From a virus: a DNA stretch of 30,965 bases. The stretch is from the UHGV virus genome UHGV-0305615; one strand, given 5' to 3'. This document shows positions 3,393-30,793 of the stretch, one piece after another. The first letter of the stretch is position 1. Each line of letters opens with the position of its first letter. Both the position numbers and the translations under genes were made by a program. The notes below the pieces were generated by a model that was not told the origin of the DNA, did not search any database, and saw only the letters and a list, made by a program, of their open reading frames with translations.

Positions 3393-4210
3393 ACGTACAT
3401 ATCCTGTTTACGTGCCCAGTCAGGGCGTTTAATAATTTCCACGCCGCCCCATTCATCATTTATGCGGCATTCGTGATAGGTATTCAGATCCCGGCGGAAC
3501 AGAGCGTGCCCGGCATCGACATCCGGCGCATCCAGCTCGAACACGCGTACCGGATACCGACCACAATCAATGCTTTCGCTCACGGCAAGAAAGAAAAAAC
3601 CATGCGGTTGACCAGTAACCCTCATTGCGCCTTCGCGGTACATTGCGTCCTGCACGTGGTAGCGGAATTCCTCGATGTGGCGTGCAAAACGGTCCATATC
3701 TGCAACCTTTTTCACGTCGACGATCACGTTGTGCTCGTTCAGCCATTTGTCTGGACGAATGCGGCACAACTCACCCGTCTCTTCATCGTTCCAGTACATT
3801 GATGCTTCGCAGTAACCAGGTGCTTCCAGCATCCAGCGTGCCGCCGGATGAGCCATTGCGCTATCACGCATGAGCTCAAGTTTTCGCCACTGCTCGACAT
3901 CAAGTACCGTAATACCCATATCCGCCACATCACGAAGAAATGCTTCTTCGTCAGCTTTACCTTGTTTTGTCCGACGATCGAATTTCGGTGAAACGATGAA
4001 GCGTTTGTCAAACTCTCCAGGTTCCAGAAGCAGACAGTGCAGAGCAGTACCCATGTCCAGTGCAGACTTCTTCTCTTCGTCTTCCGGAGCAGCCTTCACC
4101 CATTTCAGAAGGGCAGGGTTCTTAGCCACCATATCTAGCTGCGACTTACTCACGCCGTCACCGGCGTGGTAGTCCTCGTTGCTGATATCGAAATAAATTC
4201 CCGGATTCAT
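3389..4210 (-). CDS. Phage exonuclease, PD-(D/E)XK family (YqaJ/RecE-like)
   Basis: 273 aa; RIRPDKW...VIVDVKKV resembles PD-(D/E)XK active-site motifs; paired with annealing protein. Confidence 0.7.
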   Translation of the reverse strand: MNPGIYFDISNEDYHAGDGVSKSQLDMVAKNPALLKWVKAAPEDEEKKSALDMGTALHCLLLEPGEFDKRFIVSPKFDRRTKQGKADEEAFLRDVADMGITVLDVEQWRKLELMRDSAMAHPAARWMLEAPGYCEASMYWNDEETGELCRIRPDKWLNEHNVIVDVKKVADMDRFARHIEEFRYHVQDAMYREGAMRVTGQPHGFFFLAVSESIDCGRYPVRVFELDAPDVDAGHALFRRDLNTYHECRINDEWGGVEIIKRPDWARKQDMYV

Positions 4211-4506
4211 GCCGCGTCCCTCTGCCCATCAATCTGATCAGCCAGATCCCAGCGGGCGATAATTGCCATTGCCTCGCGCCGGTAGGCATCCATCAGTTCT
4301 TCGAACTCAGGGCTGCCTTTAGCAGCCTCCAGCACTTCCTGACGAACGCCTTTGCCTGTTACAACGTCGAAAGTTGAGGACAGTTGATGAAGTCGGATGC
4401 TCTCAATCAGTTCAACTTGTCGGTCATATAGCTGTTCTGACAGGCGGTAGTCCTTGTCGAATGCCAGCATGATTTTTTGAAGATTTTTCTGCTGATTAAC
4501 GTTCAT
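4207..4506 (-). CDS. Hypothetical early protein (99 aa)
   Basis: Track ORF 4207..4521 trimmed to ATG 4506 (MNVNQQ...) with GGGAGGG RBS; stop overlaps exonuclease start. Confidence 0.55.
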   Translation of the reverse strand: MNVNQQKNLQKIMLAFDKDYRLSEQLYDRQVELIESIRLHQLSSTFDVVTGKGVRQEVLEAAKGSPEFEELMDAYRREAMAIIARWDLADQIDGQRDAA

Positions 4507-4508
4507 TA

Positions 4509-4661
4509 TCAGCCCTCCCATATCTCGTTATCGTTGGCTACATCGCGAGCTTCTTTGCTGACGAAAGCCCACTTAATGCCTTCCTGTAAGGTGCGGAACT
4601 TCCAGCTCATGAATCCGCATGCAGTAACGCAGTACCAACCGTTGATGATTTTCCACTGCAT
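4509..4661 (-). CDS. Hypothetical small protein (50 aa), first gene of leftward early operon
   Basis: Not in ORF track (below size cut-off). ATG 4661..4659 preceded by GAGGT; translation MQWKIINGWYCVTACGFMSWKFRTLQEGIKWAFVSKEARDVANDNEIWEG; stop 3 nt before next gene's start. Confidence 0.4.
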   Translation of the reverse strand: MQWKIINGWYCVTACGFMSWKFRTLQEGIKWAFVSKEARDVANDNEIWEG

Positions 4662-4680
4662 AACTTGTTACCTCGGTCGG

Positions 4681-4695
4681 TTACCGTTGAGGTAA
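4681..4695. promoter_or_regulatory. Predicted operator (dyad TTACCGTTGAGGTAA), leftward early promoter region
   Basis: Exact TTACC-N5-GGTAA dyad just downstream of a leftward TTGACA -35 (rc of 4718-4723). Confidence 0.5.
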
Positions 4696-4742
4696 TGATT
4701 ATGCGTATCTGGTTTGATGTCAATAGATATGAGTTAAAAAAA

Positions 4743-4757
4743 TTACCCATAAGGTAA
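4743..4757. promoter_or_regulatory. Predicted operator (dyad TTACCCATAAGGTAA)
   Basis: Exact TTACC-N5-GGTAA dyad between repressor-gene terminator and leftward promoter. Confidence 0.5.
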
Positions 4758-4769
4758 TCTTGTTGGTAA

Positions 4770-4792
4770 TAAAAAAGCCGCCATAAGGCGGC
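4770..4792 (-). terminator. Rho-independent terminator downstream of repressor gene
   Basis: GCCGCC-ATAA-GGCGGC hairpin (4777-4792) followed on the minus strand by a T6 run (A-run 4771-4776 on plus). Confidence 0.7.
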
Positions 4793-4814
4793 TTACTTAC
4801 TGAAAAATATGATT

Positions 4815-5399
4815 TTATTGTTTGTTTTTTTCGTTCTGGTTGATGACAAATTCAATGTAACTTTCGATCTTTGCCTTCTCTGTTTCAGGTAACAATGCGT
4901 AGCGCGAGCGGTCATAGTTGATAGTTGCAGGGTCATGCGGATGAATCAGTAGTTCATATCCGTGACGCCCGAATGCAGATGCAACATTCTCCAGGGTGGA
5001 AATGGAAACGCTGACTTCATTGTTTAACAGGCGGCTTATTGTCACCTGGGCGACGCCGGATGCGCGGTGAAGTTTTCCCTGAGTTGAAAGGTCGCGGCTT
5101 TCACTCATCCAGCGTTCCAGGTTGTGAGCTGCCAGCTGACCAATGTCGCTTGGGCCGACAGGCTGAAAACCTTCCTGAGAAAGCGAGCGATCGATATCAA
5201 GCCAGTTACGGGGTTTATTGGCGGCAGCTTCAATTTTTCGCGCAACCTGGTCGCCGATAACCTTCTTGCCAAGAGCCCAGCGGTTTACCAGATTTGCCTG
5301 AGTTCCAAGTTTTTCTGCCATCCGCGTCTGAACACCATTGAATTCACGGTCGATCAAGTCGTTGAGATTTTGCCTGCGGACGTCCTGGATACTTTTCAT
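4815..5399 (-). CDS. Prophage repressor, CI-like, two HTH domains, no peptidase S24 (autocleavage) domain
   Basis: 194 aa; two XRE-like HTH stretches (MAEKLGTQANLVNRWALGKK... and ASGVAQVTISRLLNNEVSVSISTLENVAS...); divergent from Cro-like gene; dyad operators on both sides. Confidence 0.7.
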   Translation of the reverse strand: MKSIQDVRRQNLNDLIDREFNGVQTRMAEKLGTQANLVNRWALGKKVIGDQVARKIEAAANKPRNWLDIDRSLSQEGFQPVGPSDIGQLAAHNLERWMSESRDLSTQGKLHRASGVAQVTISRLLNNEVSVSISTLENVASAFGRHGYELLIHPHDPATINYDRSRYALLPETEKAKIESYIEFVINQNEKNKQ

Positions 5400-5454
5400 T
5401 TTCTGGAAAATCGCCTCATATATGAATCAGTAGATGATTCAATTTAAAGCAATA

Positions 5455-5469
5455 TTACCCAACAGGTAA
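5455..5469. promoter_or_regulatory. Predicted operator (dyad TTACCCAACAGGTAA) in repressor/cro intergenic region
   Basis: Exact TTACC-N5-GGTAA dyad. Confidence 0.55.
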
Positions 5470-5502
5470 ATGCACCTCATAGGTAACTATCCTTGATTTT
5501 TG

Positions 5503-5517
5503 TTACCTTATGGGTGA
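5503..5517. promoter_or_regulatory. Predicted operator (TTACCTTATGGGTGA) overlapping rightward promoter
   Basis: One mismatch in right half; lies within the spacer of a TTGATT -35 / AT-rich -10 upstream of the Cro-like gene. Confidence 0.45.
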
Positions 5518-5553
5518 ATATTTATTATCTGAAATAAATATCAGGCAATAGCT

Positions 5554-5784
5554 ATGAGCGATAACGGACATTTCGATTTCAAAAAGCACTGGCTTGCACT
5601 TACTCCGGATGAGCGTGAAGCCTTCGCACAGGAAGCCGGAACGACGAGTCACTATATCCAGACTCACTTAACAGGTAAGCGCAAAATGCCAGGTAAAGTA
5701 TTGATGAATGGGCTTTTTAAAGCCTGTAAAACAAGACAATGGCTGCGCTCAAAAGCAGAACTGGCATACTTCTTCTACTCATGA
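5554..5784 (+). CDS. Cro-like HTH regulator
   Basis: 76 aa; divergent from repressor; HTH-like EAFAQEAGTTSHYIQTHLTGKRK; assignment mostly positional. Confidence 0.55.
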   Translation: MSDNGHFDFKKHWLALTPDEREAFAQEAGTTSHYIQTHLTGKRKMPGKVLMNGLFKACKTRQWLRSKAELAYFFYS

Positions 5785-5805
5785 TATCCAGCTACAACCC
5801 TCTGT

Positions 5806-5829
5806 AGACCGCCACCCGGCGGTCTTTTC
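5806..5829 (+). terminator. Rho-independent terminator after cro-like gene (tR1-like position)
   Basis: AGACCGCC-ACCC-GGCGGTCT hairpin followed by TTTT. Confidence 0.65.
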
Positions 5830-5934
5830 ATATCTATTCGTACCTCAAAGGTAATAAAAAACCAAATCTGGTTGATCTTTTTTTTGTGTCAGCACAAAAT
5901 GACCGTAATCCCAATACTAATAACAGGGCTTACC

Positions 5935-6135
5935 ATGGAAATCATTACACGTATTGATGCCGCAAAGCGCGGACTTAAACGCTACTACACCGGAAAAACA
6001 TGTAAGCACGGACATGACAGTGAACGCTGGGTTTACAACGGACACTGTGTTGAGTGCACCATGGAATCAAACCGTCGTATCAGGGCAGAGATTAAGCAGA
6101 TCATGATTAATTCCTCCCCACAACATTCAAGCTGA
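5935..6135 (+). CDS. Hypothetical small zinc-ribbon protein (66 aa)
   Basis: Track ORF 5872..6135; ATG 5935 chosen (alternative ATG 5899); CKHGH...CVEC cysteine/histidine cluster. Confidence 0.4.
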   Translation: MEIITRIDAAKRGLKRYYTGKTCKHGHDSERWVYNGHCVECTMESNRRIRAEIKQIMINSSPQHSS

Positions 6136-6150
6136 TAGCGGAGATTAATC

Positions 6151-6942
6151 ATGAGCAGACATGCAACAGATTGGGCCTGGGAGACAGATCCAGGTAGCTC
6201 GTCATTAAAGCTCATACTGCTCTCGATGGCTGACAGAGCCGATGAATATAACCTCTGCTACCCCAGCATAGAACGCCTCGTTAAAGACACTTGCCTGAAT
6301 AAAAAAACCGTGCAGGCCGGGCTTATATCGCTCATGAAAATGGGGCTTATTTCAGATACCGGAGAGAGAAAGGGAGCGACGAAAAGAGTGCGGGTTTTCT
6401 CTCTTAATATAACCAAAAACGGGAACATTAAAGGCAACCGGGAAGGGGGTAATGAACCCGAAAACGGTAATGTTACCGAAAACGGGAATATACCCAAAAA
6501 CGGGATGTTGAATGATCCCAAAAACGGGATCCAGAACCAGTCATATAACCAGTCATTTAACCAAGAGAGGGAGAGCAGGACAAAAACCGGGAATTCTGTG
6601 CCTCATGACCCCGGCGCAAACAACGCCGTGATGAATAACTTTGTTCCTCCTGGTGGGCCAGGGCAATTAGGCAAATTTGTCATGCATGAACAATGGCAAC
6701 CATCAGATGACTTTCTTCGGAAAAGCTCATTGCAGGGAATCTACCTGGACAGTCTGCCAACGGCACAGGAACTTGCAGAGTTCAGAATTTACTGGATGGC
6801 TGAGGGTAAGGCATACCATCAGGCACAGTGGGAGCAGAAGCTGGCAAGGCGGCTGCAGATTAGCAGACAGAAGCAACCAACATTACCTGATAACAACGTT
6901 CCGCACTGGAACAGCCCTGAAGCGTGGGAGGATTTCTTGTGA
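6151..6942 (+). CDS. Replication initiator, lambda-O-like (HTH N-terminus, internal iterons)
   Basis: 263 aa; GGAG RBS; N-terminal HTH-like LILLSMADRADEYNLCYPSIERLVKDTCLNKKTVQAGL; internal DNA iterons produce an Asn/Gly/Lys-rich low-complexity linker; immediately upstream of P-like gene. Confidence 0.65.
   Translation: MSRHATDWAWETDPGSSSLKLILLSMADRADEYNLCYPSIERLVKDTCLNKKTVQAGLISLMKMGLISDTGERKGATKRVRVFSLNITKNGNIKGNREGGNEPENGNVTENGNIPKNGMLNDPKNGIQNQSYNQSFNQERESRTKTGNSVPHDPGANNAVMNNFVPPGGPGQLGKFVMHEQWQPSDDFLRKSSLQGIYLDSLPTAQELAEFRIYWMAEGKAYHQAQWEQKLARRLQISRQKQPTLPDNNVPHWNSPEAWEDFL
6413..6530 (+). repeat. Iteron array (five direct repeats, core CCmAAAACGGkAA) inside the O-like gene; candidate replication origin
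   Basis: Repeats starting at 6413, 6457, 6476, 6493 and 6517. Confidence 0.55.
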
Positions 6943-22936: not shown

Positions 22937-25683
22937 TGCCAGTTGTACCAACAACATCGGGACGCCAGGTGCAAAGTCGTGGTGTGCAAACCGGTGGTTT
23001 TCAGACCTTCGATGTTCCTCAAGCAGGTCAGGTGCTGGCGAATGTCGCAGATCAGTATGCGGTGGCATATGGTGAAGCCAGGCAGAAAGCGAATGTTGCT
23101 ATGGCCCAGGAGGCGTTACTGCAATTTAACCAATTTGCAGATGACCAGATTAACAACCCTGAAAATGGGCTGATTTCTAAACAGGGTAAAAACGCTCTTG
23201 GTCAGAGTGACGCTGTTATGAAAAATATGCAGGAAAGGGCTCAGGCATTATTAGGCTCAATTCCTGAAAGTGAGGAAAGGAATAAATTATCCTTTCAACT
23301 CCAGAAGTCTATGCAGTCTTATTACAATCAGGCACGTCGATATGAAGTTGGGCAGTTTCAGCAATTCCAAGATCAAACGTATTTGTCAGGAAATGCATTG
23401 GCTGTCACTCAGTCTGCGGGGCTATATAGCGATAACCAAGCATTTGTCGATTTAGCCAAGCAGCGATTTGAATCTATTGATCAATACGCTGATGCGCATG
23501 GGCTTCCTGATGAGTGGCGTGTTCAGCAGAAAACTCAGCTCAAGGAACAAATGGGGCAGCAAGCATGGATAGGAAATATCGCTCAAAAATACAACGAGTT
23601 TCTTCAGGTTAATGGAGAGCCAGGGGATCTTGATGGTGTGAGTCGCGCAATATCACATGGTAATTCATTGGATGCTCGTGGTTTACGTAATAATAACCCT
23701 GGTAATATTGAAGCGAGCAAATCTAACCCGTGGGAAGGTCAGATCGGTAGCGATGGACGTTTTGCAACGTTTGCTACCCCTGAGCATGGAATCCGCGCGT
23801 TGGGTAAAAATATGTTGTCTTACCAGCGTCAAGGCTATGACACCGTTAGCGAGATTGTTAATCGCTATGCTCCGGCTAGTGATGGTAATAATACTGATGC
23901 TTATATTAGGGCATTGTGTGGTGAGCTTGGTGTTGGGGAGAATGATCAGCTTGATATCTCTAACCCAAAGACACTAGCTGCTTTATGTGCTGGGATTATT
24001 AAACACGAAAATGGCAGTATGCCTTATAGCACCGAACAGCTTGAAACTGGTATCTCGGCAGCCCTTGGTCTAACTAACCTTGATTCACCTAAGCGTTATA
24101 CGGGCAATGCGGCATTTGATGCTATGAGCCCTCAAATGCAAATACAGGCATTGAGGCAGGCTAATGAGCTGAGAAATCAGTACCGCCAGCAGTATGCGGA
24201 CCAGCTTAGCACCGTAGTTAAAGATGCATATTCAGCCCTTGATGAAGGATTGAAACCTGAGAAGTTACCTTCTGAGGACGATTTTATCCGGGCCAATGGT
24301 CCGCGCATTGGCGCTATGAAGTGGAAGGATATGCAGGCGCAGATACAATATGGAGGTGTCATTGGTGCCGCTAAAGACCTCACTCCAGAAGGACGACAAG
24401 ACATTCTTGAACGTTTACGTCCACAGGATCCAAACGCTCCTGGATTTGCAGCTAACCAGCAACGCTGGGAGAAAATGCAGGCCAAATTTAAAGAGATGGA
24501 TAGGGAGTGGGAGATTCAGCAGGGAAGAAACAGGTTCGTGTCTTCAATGCAAAATAACTTCCCGCTGGACCCGAACGACAAAAACAATCAGGCAGCGGTA
24601 GACCGCTATTTCGCGCAGGATATCGCGCCTTCGTTTTCCATATCTGATCCGCAGAGCATCAATACACTGGTCACCGTCACAACTAAAAGCGGCATGATAC
24701 CAACTCAGGTTAAAACAATGCTTAACAGTGGAGCAACATCAAGAGATCCTGCGCTGGTTGTCCCGATGGCAAAATTCTACGGTCAGTTATTCGATAATAA
24801 TCCGGCGGCAGCGGCAACACTTGATAAAAGTACGATGGCATTTTACGGCAAGGTTTACGATTATTCCCGCGCTGGCGTGCCGGAGGATAAGGCTGTTGAT
24901 ATGGCTTACAGCCAGGTGTTCCAACAGGATGACCGAATGAAACAGATGCTTTCCACTGCCATGCGAGACAAAAAATATGTCGCGGCGAGGGCAACTGCTG
25001 CACAAAATAACGCCAGCAGTCTGACTTCCTTTGGTTCGTGGTCTCCGGATATTACCGATCCAGGAAAATCAAATGCGGCCTATCAGCGAGATTACCAGAC
25101 AATTTACGATGCTAACTTTGTACAGACAGGTGGCGATGCAGAACAGGCTGAGAAAATGACCAATGCCATGATCAGAACCACCTGGGGAGTTTCTACGGTT
25201 AATGGCAAAGCAGAGGTTATGAAGTATGCACCTGAGGCATTGTACGGAGTAAATAATGGTGCTGGTAACTGGATACAGGGGCAGTGGGAGCAGGAAAAAC
25301 GCGAGCTTAAATCAAAATCCTTTGGCGGTCCTCGCAGTGATACGGACTTAATACTTGTTTCTGATGGCCTTACGGCAAGGGATAGGAGTTATGCTGTTAT
25401 GGTTTTACAGCCTGACGCAAACGGAGCGATAGAACCGAGAAATTATATTGGAGAAAATGGTCTCCCTGTTCGTTTCAAGCCGGATCAGCTGACATCTCCA
25501 ATGTACAGGCAAACCATTCAGTTCCAGCAACAGCGTGTTGATGAGGCTAGAGTGCGGAGAGAAGGCAATCCGCTGCCGCAGTTCAGCAATAAAGATGGAT
25601 ATACTCCTCCAGATCTGACCAAACCATTCGGTTATGGTTCAGCCAATTACCTTCCGAGCAATATATACGCAGGGGGCAAATAA
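22936..25683 (+). CDS. Internal virion (ejection) protein with putative cell-wall hydrolase-like segment, gp15-position
   Basis: 915 aa; AGGAGG RBS; segment GLRNNNPGNIEASKSNPWEGQIGSDGRFATF... looks like a lysozyme-like domain (recollection). Confidence 0.55.
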   Translation: MPVVPTTSGRQVQSRGVQTGGFQTFDVPQAGQVLANVADQYAVAYGEARQKANVAMAQEALLQFNQFADDQINNPENGLISKQGKNALGQSDAVMKNMQERAQALLGSIPESEERNKLSFQLQKSMQSYYNQARRYEVGQFQQFQDQTYLSGNALAVTQSAGLYSDNQAFVDLAKQRFESIDQYADAHGLPDEWRVQQKTQLKEQMGQQAWIGNIAQKYNEFLQVNGEPGDLDGVSRAISHGNSLDARGLRNNNPGNIEASKSNPWEGQIGSDGRFATFATPEHGIRALGKNMLSYQRQGYDTVSEIVNRYAPASDGNNTDAYIRALCGELGVGENDQLDISNPKTLAALCAGIIKHENGSMPYSTEQLETGISAALGLTNLDSPKRYTGNAAFDAMSPQMQIQALRQANELRNQYRQQYADQLSTVVKDAYSALDEGLKPEKLPSEDDFIRANGPRIGAMKWKDMQAQIQYGGVIGAAKDLTPEGRQDILERLRPQDPNAPGFAANQQRWEKMQAKFKEMDREWEIQQGRNRFVSSMQNNFPLDPNDKNNQAAVDRYFAQDIAPSFSISDPQSINTLVTVTTKSGMIPTQVKTMLNSGATSRDPALVVPMAKFYGQLFDNNPAAAATLDKSTMAFYGKVYDYSRAGVPEDKAVDMAYSQVFQQDDRMKQMLSTAMRDKKYVAARATAAQNNASSLTSFGSWSPDITDPGKSNAAYQRDYQTIYDANFVQTGGDAEQAEKMTNAMIRTTWGVSTVNGKAEVMKYAPEALYGVNNGAGNWIQGQWEQEKRELKSKSFGGPRSDTDLILVSDGLTARDRSYAVMVLQPDANGAIEPRNYIGENGLPVRFKPDQLTSPMYRQTIQFQQQRVDEARVRREGNPLPQFSNKDGYTPPDLTKPFGYGSANYLPSNIYAGGK

Positions 25684-28600
25684 TGCCGATATATGAACAG
25701 GATCCTAAAGAGTTGCTTGGCGAGGATATTCAGCAAATAGCAGCACCTGATGACAGTAATTTCTATATGGAAACACCTTCTTTGCTTTCTGCTGTGAACC
25801 CATTTACCAGTGATCAACGCGTTCAAAGGTCTAGACAAGCAGCATTTCGTATAGATAACACGCTGGGTAGCTTTATTGCCAGTGCTCCTTTCAGTCAGTT
25901 TGACAGGGTTGAAGGATATAACCCATTTGATAACGATGCAGCAGATATTAAAGGCTATGAAGATTTTGCAGATTCGTTTATCAACTCCGGTTCGCATGAA
26001 GAAACAATGGCAATTAAACATCGAATCGATAAGCAAAGAACAGATAGAGAATATCTATCTGAAATGGGTGGTGCTGGTACTATTTCAAGCTTAGCAATGG
26101 GAATGATAGACCCGGTTAATGTGGCTGCAATGTTCATCCCTGTAGGGGCGGTAGCGCGTGGAGGAAGTATTGCTGAGACGGCAGGGCGTTTTGCCCTGGC
26201 GAATGCTGCTGGTGGGGGAGTATCAGAAGCCGCATTACAGGCCACTCAGGAAGCTCGCTCACCGATGGAGAGCGTATCGAACGTTGTTGTTGATGCTCTC
26301 GTTGGTGGGATCCTTGGTGCTGGTGCACAGCTACTTGCTGGACCTAGCGCGCGCGAGGCAGTGGTTAACTCAGTAGGTAATCATTTGAGAGGTATGGATT
26401 CTCCTCAAAGCATTGGTGCAGCTCAGGTTTTCAATACCACACTCGATCAGGAACAGCTCGCTGGACTTGGACTTGCTAACAAAACGTTGAGTGTCACTCC
26501 TGCTGGCCGCTTGGCTCAATCACCATCTCTTGTCTCCCGTCAGATTAACCAGCAGCTTGCCGAAAATAACTATTTCTTCGCCAAAAATGATGAGGGGTTG
26601 GCTACGTTTACGGCAGTCGAGACTAAGATTAAGCAATACGACGCCATGCTTTATAAGCAGATGGAAGCCACTCGTGATGCTTACCAGCAGTACAGCAAAT
26701 CTGTTAGCGCCCGCGGCGTGAAGAGGATGAACTTTATTGATTTCAATGAAGCTGTTGGCATGGCTATGCGCCGTGGTGATCAGAGTGATATTCCTGAGGT
26801 TTCACAAGCAGCCGCCAGAATCCGCCCCATTTTTGAGACCACAAAAGCCCGTATGCAGGAACTGGGGATCCTTCCTGAGGATATCGATGTCGTGACGGCG
26901 AAAAGTTATCTTCCCCGCATTTATAAGTTCGATAAGATACTTTCCGACCGCACTGAATTCAGAGGGCGAATTGCCAACTGGATACAAGGGATTAGTGCCA
27001 AAGGTGCTGACAAAGCAGGTCAGCGAATTGAAAGGATAAATTCATTGCTAAAAACTGCAGAGGAATCGGCACCGCGCGCTGATGCTCTCGCTAGTGAAAT
27101 CGCTGAAGCGGAGAAATGGTCTGGTAAAAAAATTCTACTCATGGAAGAACTGGATAAACGAAATAAGCTTATATCTCAGGAGACTGACACACAGGCGCGT
27201 CTTACAAGAATAGAAAAAGAGTTGGCCGAGACTTCATCAGAAAAACTTCAGGCAAGAATGATGAAAGAAAGTTCTGACCTTAAAACACGCCTTGATGATA
27301 TAGCGCAGGCAAAGAGTGAGCTTCCTGTCTATCAGCGCCATATGGAGTTGCTGGATAATCCACGGAAATATCGTTCTGAGCTTCGCCGACTGCAAAAACG
27401 GGCAAATTCAACCACAAGGCTGAATGCAAGCCGCGAACGAGCACTGAAGCAGATGGAGCCTCTATCCCGAGAGGAAGCAGAGGACGCTGCTGACGAGATC
27501 GTGAATAAAATAATAGGCGCACCTTCCGGGCTTGTACCAGCCGATATTATCCCAGAGAGACTCGTTGGTCGGGCTGGTTTCACTAAAAGCAGAACGCTGC
27601 TTATTCCTGATGAGCGTATAGAAGATTTTCTTGAATCAGATGTTAACTACATCATGGAAAGTTATCTCCGGCAGGTGGCACCAGAAATTGAGCTGACTGC
27701 GCAGTTTGGCCGTAAAGATATGGGGGAGCAAATCCGTCAGGTTAGTGAGGAATATACCCGGCTAATAAAAGAGGCTAAAACACCTAAACGACGTGCAGTT
27801 CTTGAGAAGCAACGGGAGGCTGATATTAGGGATATTACGGCTATGCGTGATCGACTGCTTGGTACTTACGGTGCACCTCAAGATCCACGCAGTTTCTTTG
27901 TTCGTGCCGGGCGAGTTGCTAGGAATATTAACTTCCTCCGTTTGCTTGGTGGAATGACTGTCTCCGCTGCAACTGATCTGATGCGACCGATGATGCAGCA
28001 TGGCCTGAGAAAATCTCTCGGACCAATGGTAAGCATGCTTAAAAATATGGACTCAGTGAAAATTGCAACCAGGGATTTGCGAGAAATGGCCGTTGGGCTT
28101 GATTATGTCCTGTCTACGCGTACAAAGGCTATAGCGGATCTTACTGACCCCTATAGCCGGAGAAGCGCCGCTGAGCGAGGTCTGAACTGGATGACGCAGA
28201 AATTCGGTAACTGGACGCTGATGAATCAGTGGAACAGCGCACTTAAATCATGGTCCGGGATTATAGTGCAGTCGAGGATACTTGACGCGGCTCGCCAAGT
28301 TTCTGCTGGTGGCACGCTCTCCAAAAGTGAAATGCGGAAGATGGCACAGGTCGGCATCAATGAAGATGTTCTGCGCCGAATCGGGGAGCAATTCGGGAAG
28401 CACGGAGAGGATATGGACGGGCTGTTAACCGGGCATAGTCATCTGTGGGATGACCGTTTCGCTAGAGAGATTTTCCAGTCTGCAGTGCTGAAAGATGTAG
28501 ACTCAGTGATTGTAACGCCTGGCGTAGGTGATACACCGCTGTTTTTTAGTAAAGAAGGCTGGAAGATGATCACGCAGTTCAAAACGTTTATCTTCGCACA

Positions 28601-29072
28601 GCATAACAGGGTGCTAGTATCTGGTATCCAGCAGGGCGATGCTGCATTCTATCTTGGTGCGCTTGGCACGATTGCGCTTGGCTCAATGGTCTATATGATG
28701 AAACAGAAGTTAAGCGGTCGCGATATCGACTACAGCTGGAATAACCTTGTGAAAGAGGGGATCGACCGGGGCGGAATGCTTGGCTGGCTCTCTGAGCCGC
28801 TGAATACCGTTGAGAACATAAGCGGCGGTAGGTTTGGTCTTGGCGCGATGTTTGGTGCGCCTCCGGTATCAAGGTTTCAGAGTCGTAATGCTATTGGTGC
28901 TTTACTTGGTCCTACCTTTGATCTTGGCGGTGATGCCGCGACGGTTGCGAATGGTGTACTTAACGGAGAATTTGACAGCCAGCAAACCCACGCGGTCCGT
29001 AAAATGCTACCTTTTCAGAACCTGTGGGCGATATCACCGTTACTAAATAAAGTTGAAGAGCAGATGAAATAG
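25683..29072 (+). CDS. Large internal virion / ejection protein, gp16-position
   Basis: 1129 aa; TAATG overlap with previous gene; call from size and position. Confidence 0.55.
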   Translation: MPIYEQDPKELLGEDIQQIAAPDDSNFYMETPSLLSAVNPFTSDQRVQRSRQAAFRIDNTLGSFIASAPFSQFDRVEGYNPFDNDAADIKGYEDFADSFINSGSHEETMAIKHRIDKQRTDREYLSEMGGAGTISSLAMGMIDPVNVAAMFIPVGAVARGGSIAETAGRFALANAAGGGVSEAALQATQEARSPMESVSNVVVDALVGGILGAGAQLLAGPSAREAVVNSVGNHLRGMDSPQSIGAAQVFNTTLDQEQLAGLGLANKTLSVTPAGRLAQSPSLVSRQINQQLAENNYFFAKNDEGLATFTAVETKIKQYDAMLYKQMEATRDAYQQYSKSVSARGVKRMNFIDFNEAVGMAMRRGDQSDIPEVSQAAARIRPIFETTKARMQELGILPEDIDVVTAKSYLPRIYKFDKILSDRTEFRGRIANWIQGISAKGADKAGQRIERINSLLKTAEESAPRADALASEIAEAEKWSGKKILLMEELDKRNKLISQETDTQARLTRIEKELAETSSEKLQARMMKESSDLKTRLDDIAQAKSELPVYQRHMELLDNPRKYRSELRRLQKRANSTTRLNASRERALKQMEPLSREEAEDAADEIVNKIIGAPSGLVPADIIPERLVGRAGFTKSRTLLIPDERIEDFLESDVNYIMESYLRQVAPEIELTAQFGRKDMGEQIRQVSEEYTRLIKEAKTPKRRAVLEKQREADIRDITAMRDRLLGTYGAPQDPRSFFVRAGRVARNINFLRLLGGMTVSAATDLMRPMMQHGLRKSLGPMVSMLKNMDSVKIATRDLREMAVGLDYVLSTRTKAIADLTDPYSRRSAAERGLNWMTQKFGNWTLMNQWNSALKSWSGIIVQSRILDAARQVSAGGTLSKSEMRKMAQVGINEDVLRRIGEQFGKHGEDMDGLLTGHSHLWDDRFAREIFQSAVLKDVDSVIVTPGVGDTPLFFSKEGWKMITQFKTFIFAQHNRVLVSGIQQGDAAFYLGALGTIALGSMVYMMKQKLSGRDIDYSWNNLVKEGIDRGGMLGWLSEPLNTVENISGGRFGLGAMFGAPPVSRFQSRNAIGALLGPTFDLGGDAATVANGVLNGEFDSQQTHAVRKMLPFQNLWAISPLLNKVEEQMK

Positions 29073-29513
29073 CTATTCACAATTAGTGATGGCGTATGTA
29101 TCAAATATATTGCCATCACTAAATACATACCTATACTCAATCTCTCCGCCAAGGTGAATAAATGCTTTCATTTGCCTGTTGGAGCAAATGCTCGATTTTG
29201 AATAATTTCGCATTACACTCTTTAATTTATTTTCTAAGGTTACATCACCATTATAAACTTTTGATAAATAGCTGTTGTTGTAATTAAGATGCGCTACAAC
29301 TAAAAGTTTGTTTAGTATTGCATTTATTGAAACAATAGACATATTATCATTCAATTTTATGGGAAGTGACTTTCCTGCTTCTGATGCAATTTTGTTTGCA
29401 TGTGCACACATATCCTCATTTATTAAATTCTTAAAACATATGTCGTTTGCAAACGAAAAAATTGGTAGGATAAACAAAACGGTAGCTGTAATAGCGTGCA
29501 TCGGCTTAATCAT
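29073..29513 (-). CDS. Hypothetical secreted protein (146 aa) with N-terminal signal peptide, AT-rich cargo gene
   Basis: MIKPMHAITATVLFILPIFSFA then NDICF...; 4 Cys; coding DNA roughly one-third GC versus ~50% in flanks. Confidence 0.55.
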   Translation of the reverse strand: MIKPMHAITATVLFILPIFSFANDICFKNLINEDMCAHANKIASEAGKSLPIKLNDNMSIVSINAILNKLLVVAHLNYNNSYLSKVYNGDVTLENKLKSVMRNYSKSSICSNRQMKAFIHLGGEIEYRYVFSDGNIFDTYAITNCE

Positions 29514-29525
29514 TAGGTGACCTTT

Positions 29526-29975
29526 ATGTTCAAGAAGATGATCAACAGATTAATCGGTGGTAAGGAGGTTAGCAATAAAATTCAACCTCTTATCTTTAAG
29601 GATAACTTTTCAGCTTTTGAGTATGCGTGTAAGTATCTTGACACAAGCCTTTCAGCCAATAAACCAATGCCAGCCATCATCATACCTGGTCCCAGTGGGG
29701 AACAGCCAGTTTTGCTAGATTCTGGAAGACAAAGGGCAATGCTGAAGGTGTGCTCAGCTGATGGTGGATTTTTTGTTATTGCCGATTCATCTTACAGCAA
29801 AGGACCAAAGCTGAGGATTGGTGATCTTGTTGCTTGGTTGCCTGTGAGTTATGCCGAAGAATTAACGGATAAAATAGAAGATCCTCGCTCCGCTATGGTT
29901 GGCTTTATATTGGGAACCATTCATCCTGAACTAACATCTACTGGCTGGAAGGGTAAAGAAAGATTTCGCAAGTAG
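29526..29975 (+). CDS. Hypothetical cytoplasmic protein (149 aa), AT-rich cargo gene
   Basis: ATG 29526 with AGGTGA RBS (track start 29517 is GTG); divergent from the secreted-protein gene with only ~12 bp between starts. Confidence 0.5.
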   Translation: MFKKMINRLIGGKEVSNKIQPLIFKDNFSAFEYACKYLDTSLSANKPMPAIIIPGPSGEQPVLLDSGRQRAMLKVCSADGGFFVIADSSYSKGPKLRIGDLVAWLPVSYAEELTDKIEDPRSAMVGFILGTIHPELTSTGWKGKERFRK

Positions 29976-29976
29976 C

Positions 29977-29988
29977 GTGACATGTCAC
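29977..29988. repeat. Perfect 12-bp palindrome GTGACATGTCAC (copy 3 of 3)
   Basis: Exact sequence, 1 nt after the TAG of the 149-aa gene. Confidence 0.6.
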
Positions 29989-30013
29989 AGGCCGCTTTCG
30001 CGGCCTTGTTTTT
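29989..30013 (+). terminator. Rho-independent terminator
   Basis: AGGCCGC-TTTC-GCGGCCT hairpin followed by TTGTTTTT. Confidence 0.6.
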
Positions 30014-30173
30014 AACGAATGCCACCGCCGCCCGGGCGGGAATCCGCAGAACGCCCACCGCAGCGGGAGCCGTCAGCGGCAGTATCGCTGTCGTGCTGAC
30101 AACGACCGGCAAAGGCCTGAGTTGAAGCTACCAGAGACAACAAAACGAACAGTGCAGCAAATGCTTTTTTCAT
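30012..30173 (-). CDS. Hypothetical small secreted peptide (53-aa precursor, 2 Cys in mature part)
   Basis: Internal ATG 30173 of track ORF 30012..30245; MKKAFAALFVLLSLVASTQAFA signal-peptide-like; upstream TTGACG-16-TATAGA promoter-like element; RBS weak. Confidence 0.35.
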   Translation of the reverse strand: MKKAFAALFVLLSLVASTQAFAGRCQHDSDTAADGSRCGGRSADSRPGGGGIR

Positions 30174-30245
30174 TGTGACATTTCCATCTATAAGCCACCT
30201 CGATGTGGCGTCAATGAGTGTAGCACTGACTTTTGTTTCGTCCAT

Positions 30246-30266
30246 AAAAAAGCCCGCAACGCGGGC
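30246..30266 (-). terminator. Rho-independent terminator ending the membrane-protein operon
   Basis: GCCCGC-AAC-GCGGGC hairpin followed on the minus strand by T6 (A-run 30246-30251 on plus). Confidence 0.7.
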
Positions 30267-30270
30267 TTAT

Positions 30271-30603
30271 TCAGTTATTTACTTTCTTTGGCACTATTGC
30301 TGATAATGAGATCATAAAGCCAGTTAGAGCAGCAATAATTAATGGGAATATGAAAGCATCTGAAGTTCTCAGTGGATTCTTCATATCGAACAGAATAACA
30401 ATGAAGAATGCGCTGGTTGCAAAAGTAGATGATGAATAAACCTCATTCATCTTGTATTGCAACTTATCCAAAGAAAAAGGAGGCGTATCTTTGCAAACGG
30501 CATCCCATATCAGATGAACAGCAAGATAAGCAATGCACAGTATGAAATAAAACCTTGTCAATTGCTGTGCATCTCTGGGCGCAAGCCAAGATAAATCAGG
30601 CAT
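30271..30603 (-). CDS. Hypothetical membrane protein (110 aa, about three predicted TM segments)
   Basis: Hydrophobic stretches FYFILCIAYLAVHLIW, FATSAFFIVILF, AFIFPLIIAALTGFMISLSAIV; start 1 nt after upstream gene's stop. Confidence 0.6.
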   Translation of the reverse strand: MPDLSWLAPRDAQQLTRFYFILCIAYLAVHLIWDAVCKDTPPFSLDKLQYKMNEVYSSSTFATSAFFIVILFDMKNPLRTSDAFIFPLIIAALTGFMISLSAIVPKKVNN

Positions 30604-30604
30604 T

Positions 30605-30793
30605 TTAGTTGGCTAACTTCTTTGCGGCATAGATAGCAGGGAGTGCAACAGCACCAGCCACAGCAAATGCATAGGCTATCCCAGCTGTAACAGTAAAAGC
30701 AGGAAGCAGGAAAGATAATCCGCCTGGTAGGGCAAAGCCTAAGCCCGCTCCGCCAATAATGGCCTTCAGCAATGTAATGATGTTGATTTCCAT
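30605..30793 (-). CDS. Hypothetical small membrane protein (62 aa, Gly/Ala-rich, two hydrophobic segments)
   Basis: GAGGGGG RBS; MEINIITLLKAIIGGAGLGFALPGG... with charged C-terminus KKLAN. Confidence 0.55.
   Translation of the reverse strand: MEINIITLLKAIIGGAGLGFALPGGLSFLLPAFTVTAGIAYAFAVAGAVALPAIYAAKKLAN

Follow-up and report, generated by a model that had tools for sequence, protein, structure and literature searches.

The window analyzed here, i.e. the whole 30,965-nucleotide stretch of virus genome UHGV-0305615, was matched at the DNA level to phiV10-like phages and prophages and, judged by its sequence, is an epsilon15/phiV10-like E. coli prophage. According to the open-reading-frame list, the last large internal-virion (ejection) protein of the window is a 1129-aa product encoded on the plus strand (25683..29072). 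Of the genes that run through the T7 gp14/gp15/gp16 positions, it is the third. The gene two upstream of it bears the RefSeq label “virion core protein, T7 gp14 family”, and a weak match to DUF919 was returned by Pfam for the 1129-aa protein itself. Its stop codon (29070-29072) abuts that of gene A (29075-29073 on the minus strand), which occupies 29073..29513 and encodes 146 aa from an ATG start. Gene B (29526..29975, plus strand) encodes 149 aa from its ATG, or 152 aa if an in-frame GTG at 29517 is used. The two ATGs are separated by a 12-nt spacer, TAGGTGACCTTT (29514..29525), in which AGGTGA serves as a Shine-Dalgarno-like element for B and AAAGG, on the opposite strand, as the same for A. 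This spacer is kept with two substitutions in two other lineages (L013 and L015), and it is 19 nt long in Cedecea.

A perfect 12-nt palindrome, GTGACATGTCAC, is located just past the stop codon of B (29977..29988), inside a block that is conserved in phiV10-like phages. It is followed on the plus strand by an intrinsic terminator (29989..30016) that features a GC hairpin (AGGCCGC-TTTC-GCGGCCT; -16.5 kcal/mol, z = -2.3) and a T-run, TGTTTTTAAC. In the phiV10 record, a terminator is annotated under the match to window positions 29974-30034, and the terminator of the window closes the late (virion) transcription unit. The far flank is a minus-strand gene (30012..30173) for a conserved small exported or membrane-associated protein of 53 aa (WP_000708858.1; phrog_14503, “membrane associated protein”), which was present in all three of the slot layouts compared, whichever cassette was inserted. 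The arrangement described in the original prediction, namely two divergent genes with starts 12 bp apart, one for a Cys-containing protein of 146 aa that bears a signal peptide and one for a cytoplasmic protein of 149 aa, and a palindrome and terminator after the pair, was confirmed in the sequence. The GC content of “roughly one-third” that had been ascribed to the pair holds for A only, as the values are 31.7% for A and 42.0% for B (window, 49.0%); the 100-nt minimum (27%) is at 29200.

It had also been remarked that the close starts leave no room for conventional divergent promoters. This puzzle is real. It is softened by the location of B inside the late unit, ahead of the terminator, and by a conserved sigma-70-like element in the first codons of B that may drive A. 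This candidate promoter (29547..29575, minus strand, within codons 8-17 of B) comprises TTGCTA (29575-29570), a 17-nt spacer, and TAATCT (29552-29547). L013 and L015 share both hexamers, which read TTGCCA and TATTCT in Cedecea. A scan with a stricter consensus yielded no more promoter sites than did shuffled sequence and did not detect the candidate. No Rfam match was obtained at the gathering score.

Ka/Ks values against relatives were 0.20-0.21 for A and 0.07-0.16 for B, and both products were matched end-to-end by PHROG families whose function is not given (A, phrog_8772, E = 2e-79; B, phrog_9944, E = 1.4e-92). Because of these low ratios and full-length matches, A and B are, on sequence grounds, real genes under purifying selection. 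The original prediction had named, as outcomes that would speak against it, a lack of both expression and conservation or a match to tail-fibre or assembly proteins; no tail match was found, and the Ka/Ks range over both genes (0.07-0.21) signifies conservation. These results bear on the notion that the pair encodes tail-fibre, tail-assembly or chaperone proteins or consists of non-functional remnants. The position of the pair, past the virion core genes and ahead of the tailspike, counts in favour of this notion, but no similarity to tail proteins was evident in sequence or fold, purifying selection argues against decay, the strand of A is opposite to that of the late operon, and the cassette is missing from most relatives that have identical flanks. 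Moreover, the tailspike of the relatives is a separate gene ca. 3.4 kb further downstream, past a BRO-N gene; the slot is therefore not the tail-fibre position that had been proposed for it. We consider a tail or remnant identity extremely improbable.

The slot that houses A and B, bounded by the ejection-protein genes on one side and the tailspike gene on the other, is variable. Its map matches that of P22, where gene 16 is succeeded by sieA, which is convergent with it, and next by mnt, arc/ant, and gene 9; the slot is the positional equivalent of the P22 sieA/immI region. Among 5426 complete E. coli genomes, the flanks were detected in 533 and the pair in 14, all of them flank carriers. In the E. 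coli loci without the pair that were examined (L002 and L003), the slot is filled by an unrelated 283-aa secreted protein; other occupants are likewise exported proteins that contain Cys. The idea of a cargo locus was thus borne out: the site is an optional, mosaic hot spot, occupied by the pair in 14 of 533 flank-carrying E. coli genomes, and the composition of A is atypical for the window. Among the titles and abstracts listed by a literature search, none dealt with this slot in epsilon15/phiV10-like phages.

The product of A has a type-I signal peptide (residues 1-22; cleavage at MIKPMHAITATVLFILPIFSFA/ND) and four conserved Cys residues, at positions 26, 36, 110, and 145, for which two disulfides were predicted. 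All homologues of A have an AxA-type cleavage site (SFA/ND, SLA/NN, ALA/ES, and similar), with the first Cys located 3-4 residues past it, and a lipobox (L-x-[GAS]-C) is absent from all of them. A structural model was built from nine sequences, with low confidence in the first 30 residues. The predicted fold is alpha/beta, and its top structural neighbours were AspS, a pilotin (GspS-beta/YghG-type) of type II secretion (T2SS), and its P. aeruginosa relative PA3611, a periplasmic non-lipoprotein. In the model, the order of elements (alpha1-beta1-3-(extra helix)-alpha2-alpha3-beta4-5) is that of an AspS-type pilotin. The conserved disulfide by which AspS-type pilotins tie their C-terminal segment to helix alpha2 may have a counterpart in A: Cys110, at the end of helix 91-111 of A, and the C-terminal Cys145 are invariant in 10 lineages and are 35 residues apart, compared to 37 for Cys74-Cys111 of AspS. 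Like PA3611, A has a signal peptide that lacks a lipobox. However, A is only 15% identical to these proteins, it has an additional N-terminal Cys pair (CxxNLIxEDxC), and, unlike AspS, it is prophage-encoded beside ejection genes, with no secretin gene at any A locus. Because A is not a lipoprotein, it would not undergo Lol targeting as pilotins do.

Sequence-based searches with A were otherwise unproductive. Pfam, NCBIfam, and PADLOC returned only noise for A, B, and their neighbours, and no Pfam pilotin family was matched by A even at E <= 1. A search of the PDB with the A profile gave nothing even at E <= 10, and no match at E <= 1e-3 came from a fold search of BFVD, a viral library. A match of A to Ntox35 (E = 0.056) was below threshold and was dismissed. 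The family is small (9 clusters at 90% identity); A was absent from 185,579 species-representative genomes, and a tblastn search of 50,697 phage records with A gave no match.

The predicted fold invites the proposal that A is a lysogenic-conversion factor, i.e. a soluble, non-lipidated pilotin mimic that binds a host secretin at its S-domain, the secretin being the T2SS-beta GspD of E. coli or one that serves a pilus or a filamentous phage. Such a mimic would protect or mislocalise the secretin and thereby alter secretion, virulence, or sensitivity to other phages. The top structural neighbours of A and its PA3611-like export without a lipobox accord with this proposal, and a periplasmic interaction of PA3611 with secretins has been proposed by Dunstan et al. 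(PMC3542185). The hosts of A, however, include Klebsiella, Providencia, and Cedecea, A is strictly tied to one type of ejection gene and not to any secretin gene, and the Pfam pilotin families fail to recognize it. The secretins of those three genera probably have other pilotin types or are absent. We judge a secretin-directed role to be unlikely.

The genomic association of A is with the ejection genes. A lies 0-46 bp past the last ejection gene, and convergent with it, in every one of the 10 divergent lineages (28-79% identity). It was found only with ejection proteins of the “YNPF...GYE...ETxAIKxRID” type; loci that have B alone feature another type. Shared ancestry could simply explain the confinement of A to a single ejection-protein type. 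In one lineage (L038, known from one IMG/VR contig only), the A homologue is a 290-aa fusion in which A is extended by a ca. 100-aa copy of the N-terminus of the neighbouring ejection protein, followed by a C-terminal transmembrane helix. By BLASTP, this extension was matched to its neighbour with E = 4e-17 and to residues 66-119 of the 1129-aa protein of the window with E = 3e-10.

Gene B encodes a protein with no hydrophobic segment that consists of an N-terminal amphipathic/basic peptide and a domain of ca. 130 aa. It is a member of a widespread, unnamed domain family that, as judged from the sequences of its members, is usually membrane-tethered. A total of 307 cluster representatives were collected at E<=1e-3 (ca. 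300 clusters at 50% identity), the family is not in Pfam, and 33 of 33 diverse sequences of the domain were matched to phrog_9944. Transmembrane helices were present in 36 of 58 long homologues, and an aromatic-plus-polybasic N-terminal peptide was found in at least 36 of 89 stand-alone ones. The domain is also fused to Zn-ribbons or to Zeta_toxin/AAA_33 kinases, or it occurs in tandem copies. In a different podophage lineage, a homologue with a transmembrane anchor occupies the same slot. With these families at hand, the original statement that neither protein resembles anything recognizable no longer stands: A has a predicted AspS/PA3611 fold, and B belongs to a large, if unnamed, family.

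The structural model of B was poor (pLDDT 61), and a structure search with it gave no match; searches of the PDB with narrow and broad B profiles gave nothing even at E <= 10. Among the 50,697 phage records, tblastn with B produced one weak match, in an Acinetobacter phage. PADLOC assigned neither A nor B to any of its families and gave one marginal match among 45 B homologues. In cellular genomes, the homologues of B have no conserved partner or cyclase and are mostly orphans among housekeeping genes; a GmrSD gene adjoins one of them. These neighbourhoods undercut the notion that proteins with a membrane-anchored B domain act as effectors in signalling defence systems.

The domain architectures also bear on whether B is a counter-defence decoy or sponge, i.e. 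a free copy of a domain that in bacteria is membrane-anchored or fused to effector-like parts, or, alternatively, an ejection-module protein that is virion-associated or a late accessory. B shares the strand of the late genes and is upstream of their terminator, and where a prophage has B only, B comes straight after the last ejection gene in the same orientation; the fusions, the tandem copies, and the single GmrSD neighbour are likewise compatible with such roles. On the other hand, most cellular homologues are orphans, no structural or family match to sponge, anti-defence, or virion proteins was obtained, and B is dispensable, being absent from most relatives. A decoy or late accessory role for B is, in our estimation, quite improbable.

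The original prediction had treated A and B as a single functional unit. Such a unit might be a two-component system (toxin-antitoxin, abortive infection, or sensor-effector defence) in which the head-to-head layout couples expression. In E. coli, both genes occur in the same 14 genomes; the layout, with its spacer of 12-19 nt, is kept in Cedecea despite identities of only 28% (A) and 57% (B), and both genes are also present in Klebsiella prophages. Yet A occurs alone in at least six lineages (the Providencia-type and five others; L004-6, L038-42), and B occurs alone in at least five prophage lineages (L011, L012, L014, L016, and L029); 13 cellular genomes likewise have B without A, and B is an orphan gene there in a range of Proteobacteria. 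L013 and L028 have retained B, but an unrelated domain has taken the place of the mature part of their A. In the Klebsiella prophages (L007-9), A and B are ca. 1.6 kb apart, with an mnt/arc/ant module between them. As each gene is found without the other and this module can intervene, A and B are not an obligate two-component system; they are independent modules of a two-gene accessory (“moron”) cassette. Direct contact of a toxin-antitoxin kind is in any case unlikely, because A is periplasmic and B cytoplasmic, and no toxin or antitoxin match was found in PADLOC or Pfam. A two-component system is thus very unlikely.

The Klebsiella loci resemble P22 immI in that an Arc/Mnt-type RHH gene, an arc-like gene, and a P22_AR_N antirepressor gene are situated exactly between A and B. 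There, A lies downstream of the mnt-like repressor gene, shares its strand, and is beside arc/ant, which is also the setting of sieA in P22; B is downstream of ant. The window differs in having no such module; with none present and the starts of A and B only 12 nt apart, neither Mnt nor Arc can exert any regulation here.

The likeness to P22 SieA is one of position and life style. Both A and sieA lie past the last ejection gene, convergent with it and ahead of an immI-type module and the tailspike, and both are prophage-borne and optional among relatives. The targets of SieA have been defined genetically as gp16 and gp20, both of them ejection proteins (Leavitt et al. 2024, PMC10883804), and the fusion partner of A in L038 is likewise an ejection protein. 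SieA, however, is an inner-membrane protein with three transmembrane segments and a cytoplasmic FxRYPxEAxxFNK motif (PMC10883804), whereas A is a soluble exported domain, B has no transmembrane segment, and the motif is found in neither. HMMs of A and B gave no match to the P22 locus, and the epsilon15-like lineage is not P22-like, with a different set of ejection proteins.

Superinfection exclusion or host interaction, as originally suggested, is the most plausible class of function for the locus. T4 Imm, Sp, and other envelope exclusion proteins are small, phage-encoded proteins of the membrane or periplasm that stop DNA entry by related phages. T4 differs in being a lytic myovirus whose exclusion genes are expressed early in infection and not from a prophage, and we know of no sequence or structural relationship of Imm or Sp to A or B. 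The explanation that we favour, tentatively and as something short of probable, is that A is a periplasmic superinfection-exclusion factor and that A and B are independent moron modules in a slot equivalent to that of P22 sieA/immI. Being transcribed antisense to the late operon, A would presumably be expressed in the lysogen. Its type-I signal peptide would deliver a disulfide-stabilised alpha/beta domain of the AspS/PA3611 type to the periplasm. There, when related phages come in, A could bind their last ejection protein at its N-terminal part, which would be exposed to the periplasm, much as pilotins of the AspS fold grip a short secretin peptide. Such a clamp would prevent the formation of a working DNA conduit, and superinfection exclusion would be the most likely mechanism. 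B, presumably transcribed late, would be a cytoplasmic domain tethered to the inner membrane by its N-terminal amphipathic/basic peptide, a role that one or more transmembrane helices would play in many homologues. An exclusion or abortive function for B at the inner face of the membrane is a guess.

Counted in favour of exclusion were the position of A, its link to one ejection-protein type, the L038 fusion, and the exported, Cys-containing occupants of the slot. Counted against it were the lack of homology of A and B to SieA, the fact that neither is an integral membrane protein, and the circumstance that a match to the AspS/PA3611 fold gives no direct information on the ligand; PA3611 itself has no established function (PMC3542185).

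A bolder version, which we regard as doubtful, is that the A family constitutes a previously unrecognised class of soluble periplasmic exclusion proteins of epsilon15-like phages that have re-used the AspS/PA3611 fold to clamp the N-terminus of the ejection protein at the gp16 position, which would keep the DNA conduit from being assembled. The L038 fusion would then be a membrane-anchored “decoy subunit”, and B would represent a new, widespread membrane-tethered domain, a one-gene module for immunity or exclusion in Proteobacteria and the mobile elements they carry.

Genetic detail on the DNA conduits of short-tailed phages, and on their blockage by prophages, is available for few systems, P22 SieA among them. 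Should A be a soluble periplasmic binder of ejection proteins, it would offer a tractable handle on the epsilon15/phiV10-type ejectosome, usable in pull-downs, structural work, and the mapping of escape mutants, and it would provide the first phage-biology function for the AspS/PA3611 fold. phiV10-like phages are used in the detection of E. coli O157 and in the typing of STEC strains, so prophage-encoded exclusion would affect predictions of host range. Given how often the B domain occurs in Proteobacteria and mobile elements, it merits the definition of a family. Should neither gene confer a phenotype, the locus would be just another pair of moron ORFs.

One further comparison concerned the C-terminal tails of the Providencia-type A proteins. 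Alignments of these tails to the N-termini of their own ejection proteins were not significant. They resemble only the L038-type N-terminus, with scores that were equalled in 1 of 500 and 5 of 500 shuffles, a sequence resemblance that is suggestive only.

The A/B locus is horizontally mobile cargo and belongs with the accessory or exclusion genes that prophages are known to carry between their ejection genes and tailspike gene. It adds to these a protein of predicted AspS/PA3611 fold linked with ejection proteins, along with an unnamed domain family of large size that is most likely membrane-tethered. Per the ORF list and the sequence, the 1129-aa ejection gene (plus strand) ends at 29072, and its stop codon directly adjoins that of gene A (146 aa, minus strand, 29513 to 29073). 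A 12-nt spacer (TAGGTGACCTTT, 29514-29525) separates the start codon of A from that of gene B (149 aa, plus strand, 29526 to 29975; alternative in-frame GTG start at 29517). AGGTGA in the spacer is positioned as a ribosome-binding site for B, and AAAGG on its other strand as one for A. On the 3' side of B, positions 29977-29988 form a perfect palindrome (GTGACATGTCAC), and a GC-rich hairpin plus T-run occupies 29989-30016 (-16.5 kcal/mol, z = -2.3). The two-gene anatomy of the original prediction was thus confirmed. Protein A has a canonical type-I signal peptide at its N-terminus and four Cys (26, 36, 110, and 145); no hydrophobic segment was found in B. Gene A has a GC content of 31.7% and B one of 42.0%, compared with 49.0% for the window; the drop in composition is therefore essentially that of A.

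The window DNA matches phiV10, TL-2011b, phiv142-3, and other epsilon15-like (Uetakevirus) phages, and of 5426 complete E. coli genomes, 533 had matching prophages. Two genes upstream of the 1129-aa one, RefSeq annotates a T7 gp14-family virion core protein, which places the 915-aa and 1129-aa genes at the gp15 and gp16 (ejection-protein) positions. The pair had been said to lie where a tail-fibre gene would be expected; it does not, because the tailspike of relatives is located ca. 3.4 kb farther downstream, past small membrane-protein genes and a BRO-N gene. The layout parallels that of P22 (gene 16, convergent sieA, mnt, arc/ant, tailspike gene 9). A minus-strand 53-aa ORF (30012-30173; MKKAFAALFVLLSLVASTQAFA followed by GRCQ...; signal peptide, two Cys, 58% GC; phrog_14503, “membrane associated protein”) and the terminator were retained in all slot variants, whichever cassette was present, and the phiV10 record has a terminator annotated within its match to window 29974-30034. 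Since the terminator is kept past the slot, the plus-strand genes of the slot, including B, belong to the late transcription unit, to which A is antisense. Farther along are small hydrophobic minus-strand ORFs at 30271-30603 (110 aa, phrog_36716) and 30605-30793 (62 aa, phrog_13406); their position is also variable, being occupied in relatives by a DUF4760 protein or a RefSeq-annotated YafO-family toxin gene. A sub-threshold Rfam Trp_leader match (30244-30340, minus strand; 26 bits vs. a gathering score of 41) overlaps a minus-strand terminator hairpin at 30250-30268 and is probably just that terminator.

The proposal of horizontally acquired cargo was borne out: A was found in only 14 E. coli genomes and B in the same 14 (identity of at least 98.6%), vs. 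the 533 that match the phage DNA. In two loci with identical flanks (L002 and L003), the slot holds an unrelated plus-strand gene instead of A and B, encoding a 283-aa product with a signal peptide and many Cys (phrog_6118). It is the only gene in the slot (4175-5026 in both loci), a layout of other E. coli relatives and phage EC.W1-9. With Ka/Ks values of 0.20-0.21 (A) and 0.07-0.16 (B), both are real genes. The A family is small, comprising 9 clusters among 5.8 billion proteins and five more divergent IMG/VR members; no relatives were found in 185,579 species-representative genomes.

The layouts of A and B were established by HMM searches over all loci analysed. The genes are head to head in E. 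coli, L015, and Cedecea (L010), the last with a 19-nt spacer and the order kept at just 28% (A) and 57% (B) identity. A is alone in the Providencia-type loci (L004-6) and in L038-L042; B is alone in L011, L012, L014, and L029, and in a TM-anchored form in L016. In Klebsiella (L007-9, 4024-6432) the two are ca. 1.6 kb apart, A downstream of an mnt-like gene and B downstream of ant. Exactly between them is a module like P22 immI, consisting of an Arc/Mnt-type RHH gene, an arc-like gene, and a P22_AR_N antirepressor gene; the Klebsiella B has 133 aa and is devoid of the N-terminal amphipathic peptide. In L013 and L028 the signal-peptide codons, spacer, and B are retained, and mature A is swapped for unrelated sequence (120 aa; minus-strand genes at L013:4545-4988 and L028:4544-4987), with the breakpoint directly past the signal-peptide codons. 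The coupled pair of the original prediction was consequently abandoned, as each gene occurs without the other and they are separated in Klebsiella. A toxin-antitoxin or strict two-component pair was rejected on the same grounds, on the L013/L028 swap, and on the compartments, one product being exported and the other cytoplasmic. The gene divergent from lone A encodes a small multi-TM phrog_3075 protein in L004 (5387-5674) and L042 (4662-5000; 39% mutual identity); unrelated small TM proteins take its place in L038 and L040.

That the close starts leave no room for conventional divergent promoters was upheld: as only 12 nt separate the start codons, the promoter of either gene must be inside the other. 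A candidate minus-strand promoter for A (TTGCTA, 29575-29570; 17-nt spacer; TAATCT, 29552-29547) lies in B codons 8-17. L013 and L015 conserve both hexamers, which in Cedecea read TTGCCA/TATTCT, although this conservation may reflect protein constraint; a stricter promoter scan did not report the site. B could be transcribed by late-operon read-through, which would also yield antisense RNA to A in lytic growth. Elsewhere, as the Klebsiella gene layout shows, a conventional divergent immI control region drives both A and B.

Protein A had been described as resembling nothing recognizable; its predicted element order, however, is the published order of AspS, including the PA3611-specific extra helix after beta3. 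AspS and PA3611 have in common a conserved disulfide from helix alpha2 to the C-terminal segment (PMC3542185); in A, Cys110 (end of the long helix) and Cys145 (C-terminus) are invariant in all ten lineages. A has no lipobox, as in PA3611 and unlike AspS, and therefore cannot be a Lol-targeted pilotin. Family and PDB profile searches gave no sequence-profile link to the AspS/PA3611 families. On these two grounds a pilotin was rejected, and A was filed as a PA3611-like periplasmic protein of predicted AspS fold.

In every lineage, A is convergent with the last ejection gene and follows it at 0-46 bp, which is the arrangement of sieA in P22. It was found only with ejection proteins that have an N-terminal YNPF...GYE...ETxAIKxRID segment; B-only loci have another type (824 or 922 aa). 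The A homologue of L038 (4980-5852, same contig as L056; IMGVR_UViG_2619619210_000012) has 290 aa, comprising an A domain, a linker, a ca. 100-aa segment homologous to the N-terminus of the adjoining ejection protein, and a C-terminal transmembrane helix. BLASTP matched this segment to the adjoining ejection protein (E = 4e-17) and to residues 66-119 of the window's 1129-aa protein (E = 3e-10); its 36% identity rules out a recent duplication. This fusion was found only once, in IMG/VR, and its architecture resembles a natural “decoy subunit”. The shorter tails of Providencia-type A are only suggestively related to the L038-type N-terminus. P22 SieA, a superinfection-exclusion protein, blocks injection, and escape mutations map to the ejection proteins gp16 and gp20 (PMC10883804). 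From position, association, fusion, and the SieA precedent, we infer as the most economical mechanism that A would bind the last ejection protein of an incoming phage, at the N-terminal part exposed to the periplasm, and thereby block conduit assembly.

B, likewise thought to resemble nothing, belongs to a large unnamed domain family. Among 1.84 billion cluster representatives, a profile search returned 307 relatives at E <= 1e-3, 172 of these at E <= 1e-10. The domain has ca. 130 aa (consensus FKxxxAAFEYxCKY...LPAxVLDA...DGxQxAxLKVASDDGGFxV...GPxLxPGDLVxW...DxRxGWVGxI) and no match in Pfam, PADLOC, or the PDB; phrog_9944 is its only match. One to five TM helices were predicted in 36 of 58 long homologues, N-terminal to the domain in those inspected and C-terminal in a few (e.g. 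P0088). At least 36 of 89 stand-alone homologues have an aromatic-plus-polybasic start (MxWPFxKKK, MFxFFKRKK), and the window B begins with the amphipathic MFKKMINRLIG. Given these helices and starts, the domain most likely stays in the cytoplasm, tethered to the inner membrane. Zn-ribbons were seen in some long homologues, Zeta_toxin/AAA_33 kinase domains in two, and a tandem repeat in one (P0049, P0053, and P0023: P-loop kinase fusions, once at each end, and one tandem duplication); other homologues combine Zn-ribbons with TM helices. B gave a poor AF2 model, whose structural matches are meaningless. In prophages, B is on the late strand directly past the ejection genes; in cellular genomes the gene is an orphan without a conserved partner. 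As a putative function of B, exclusion or an abortive effect at the inner membrane ranks first, ahead of decoy or anti-defence activity. Cellular B loci had housekeeping neighbours only, other than one gammaproteobacterial MAG (L044:4088-6405) in which a GmrSD-type restriction gene directly precedes it, a hint of a possible defence island.
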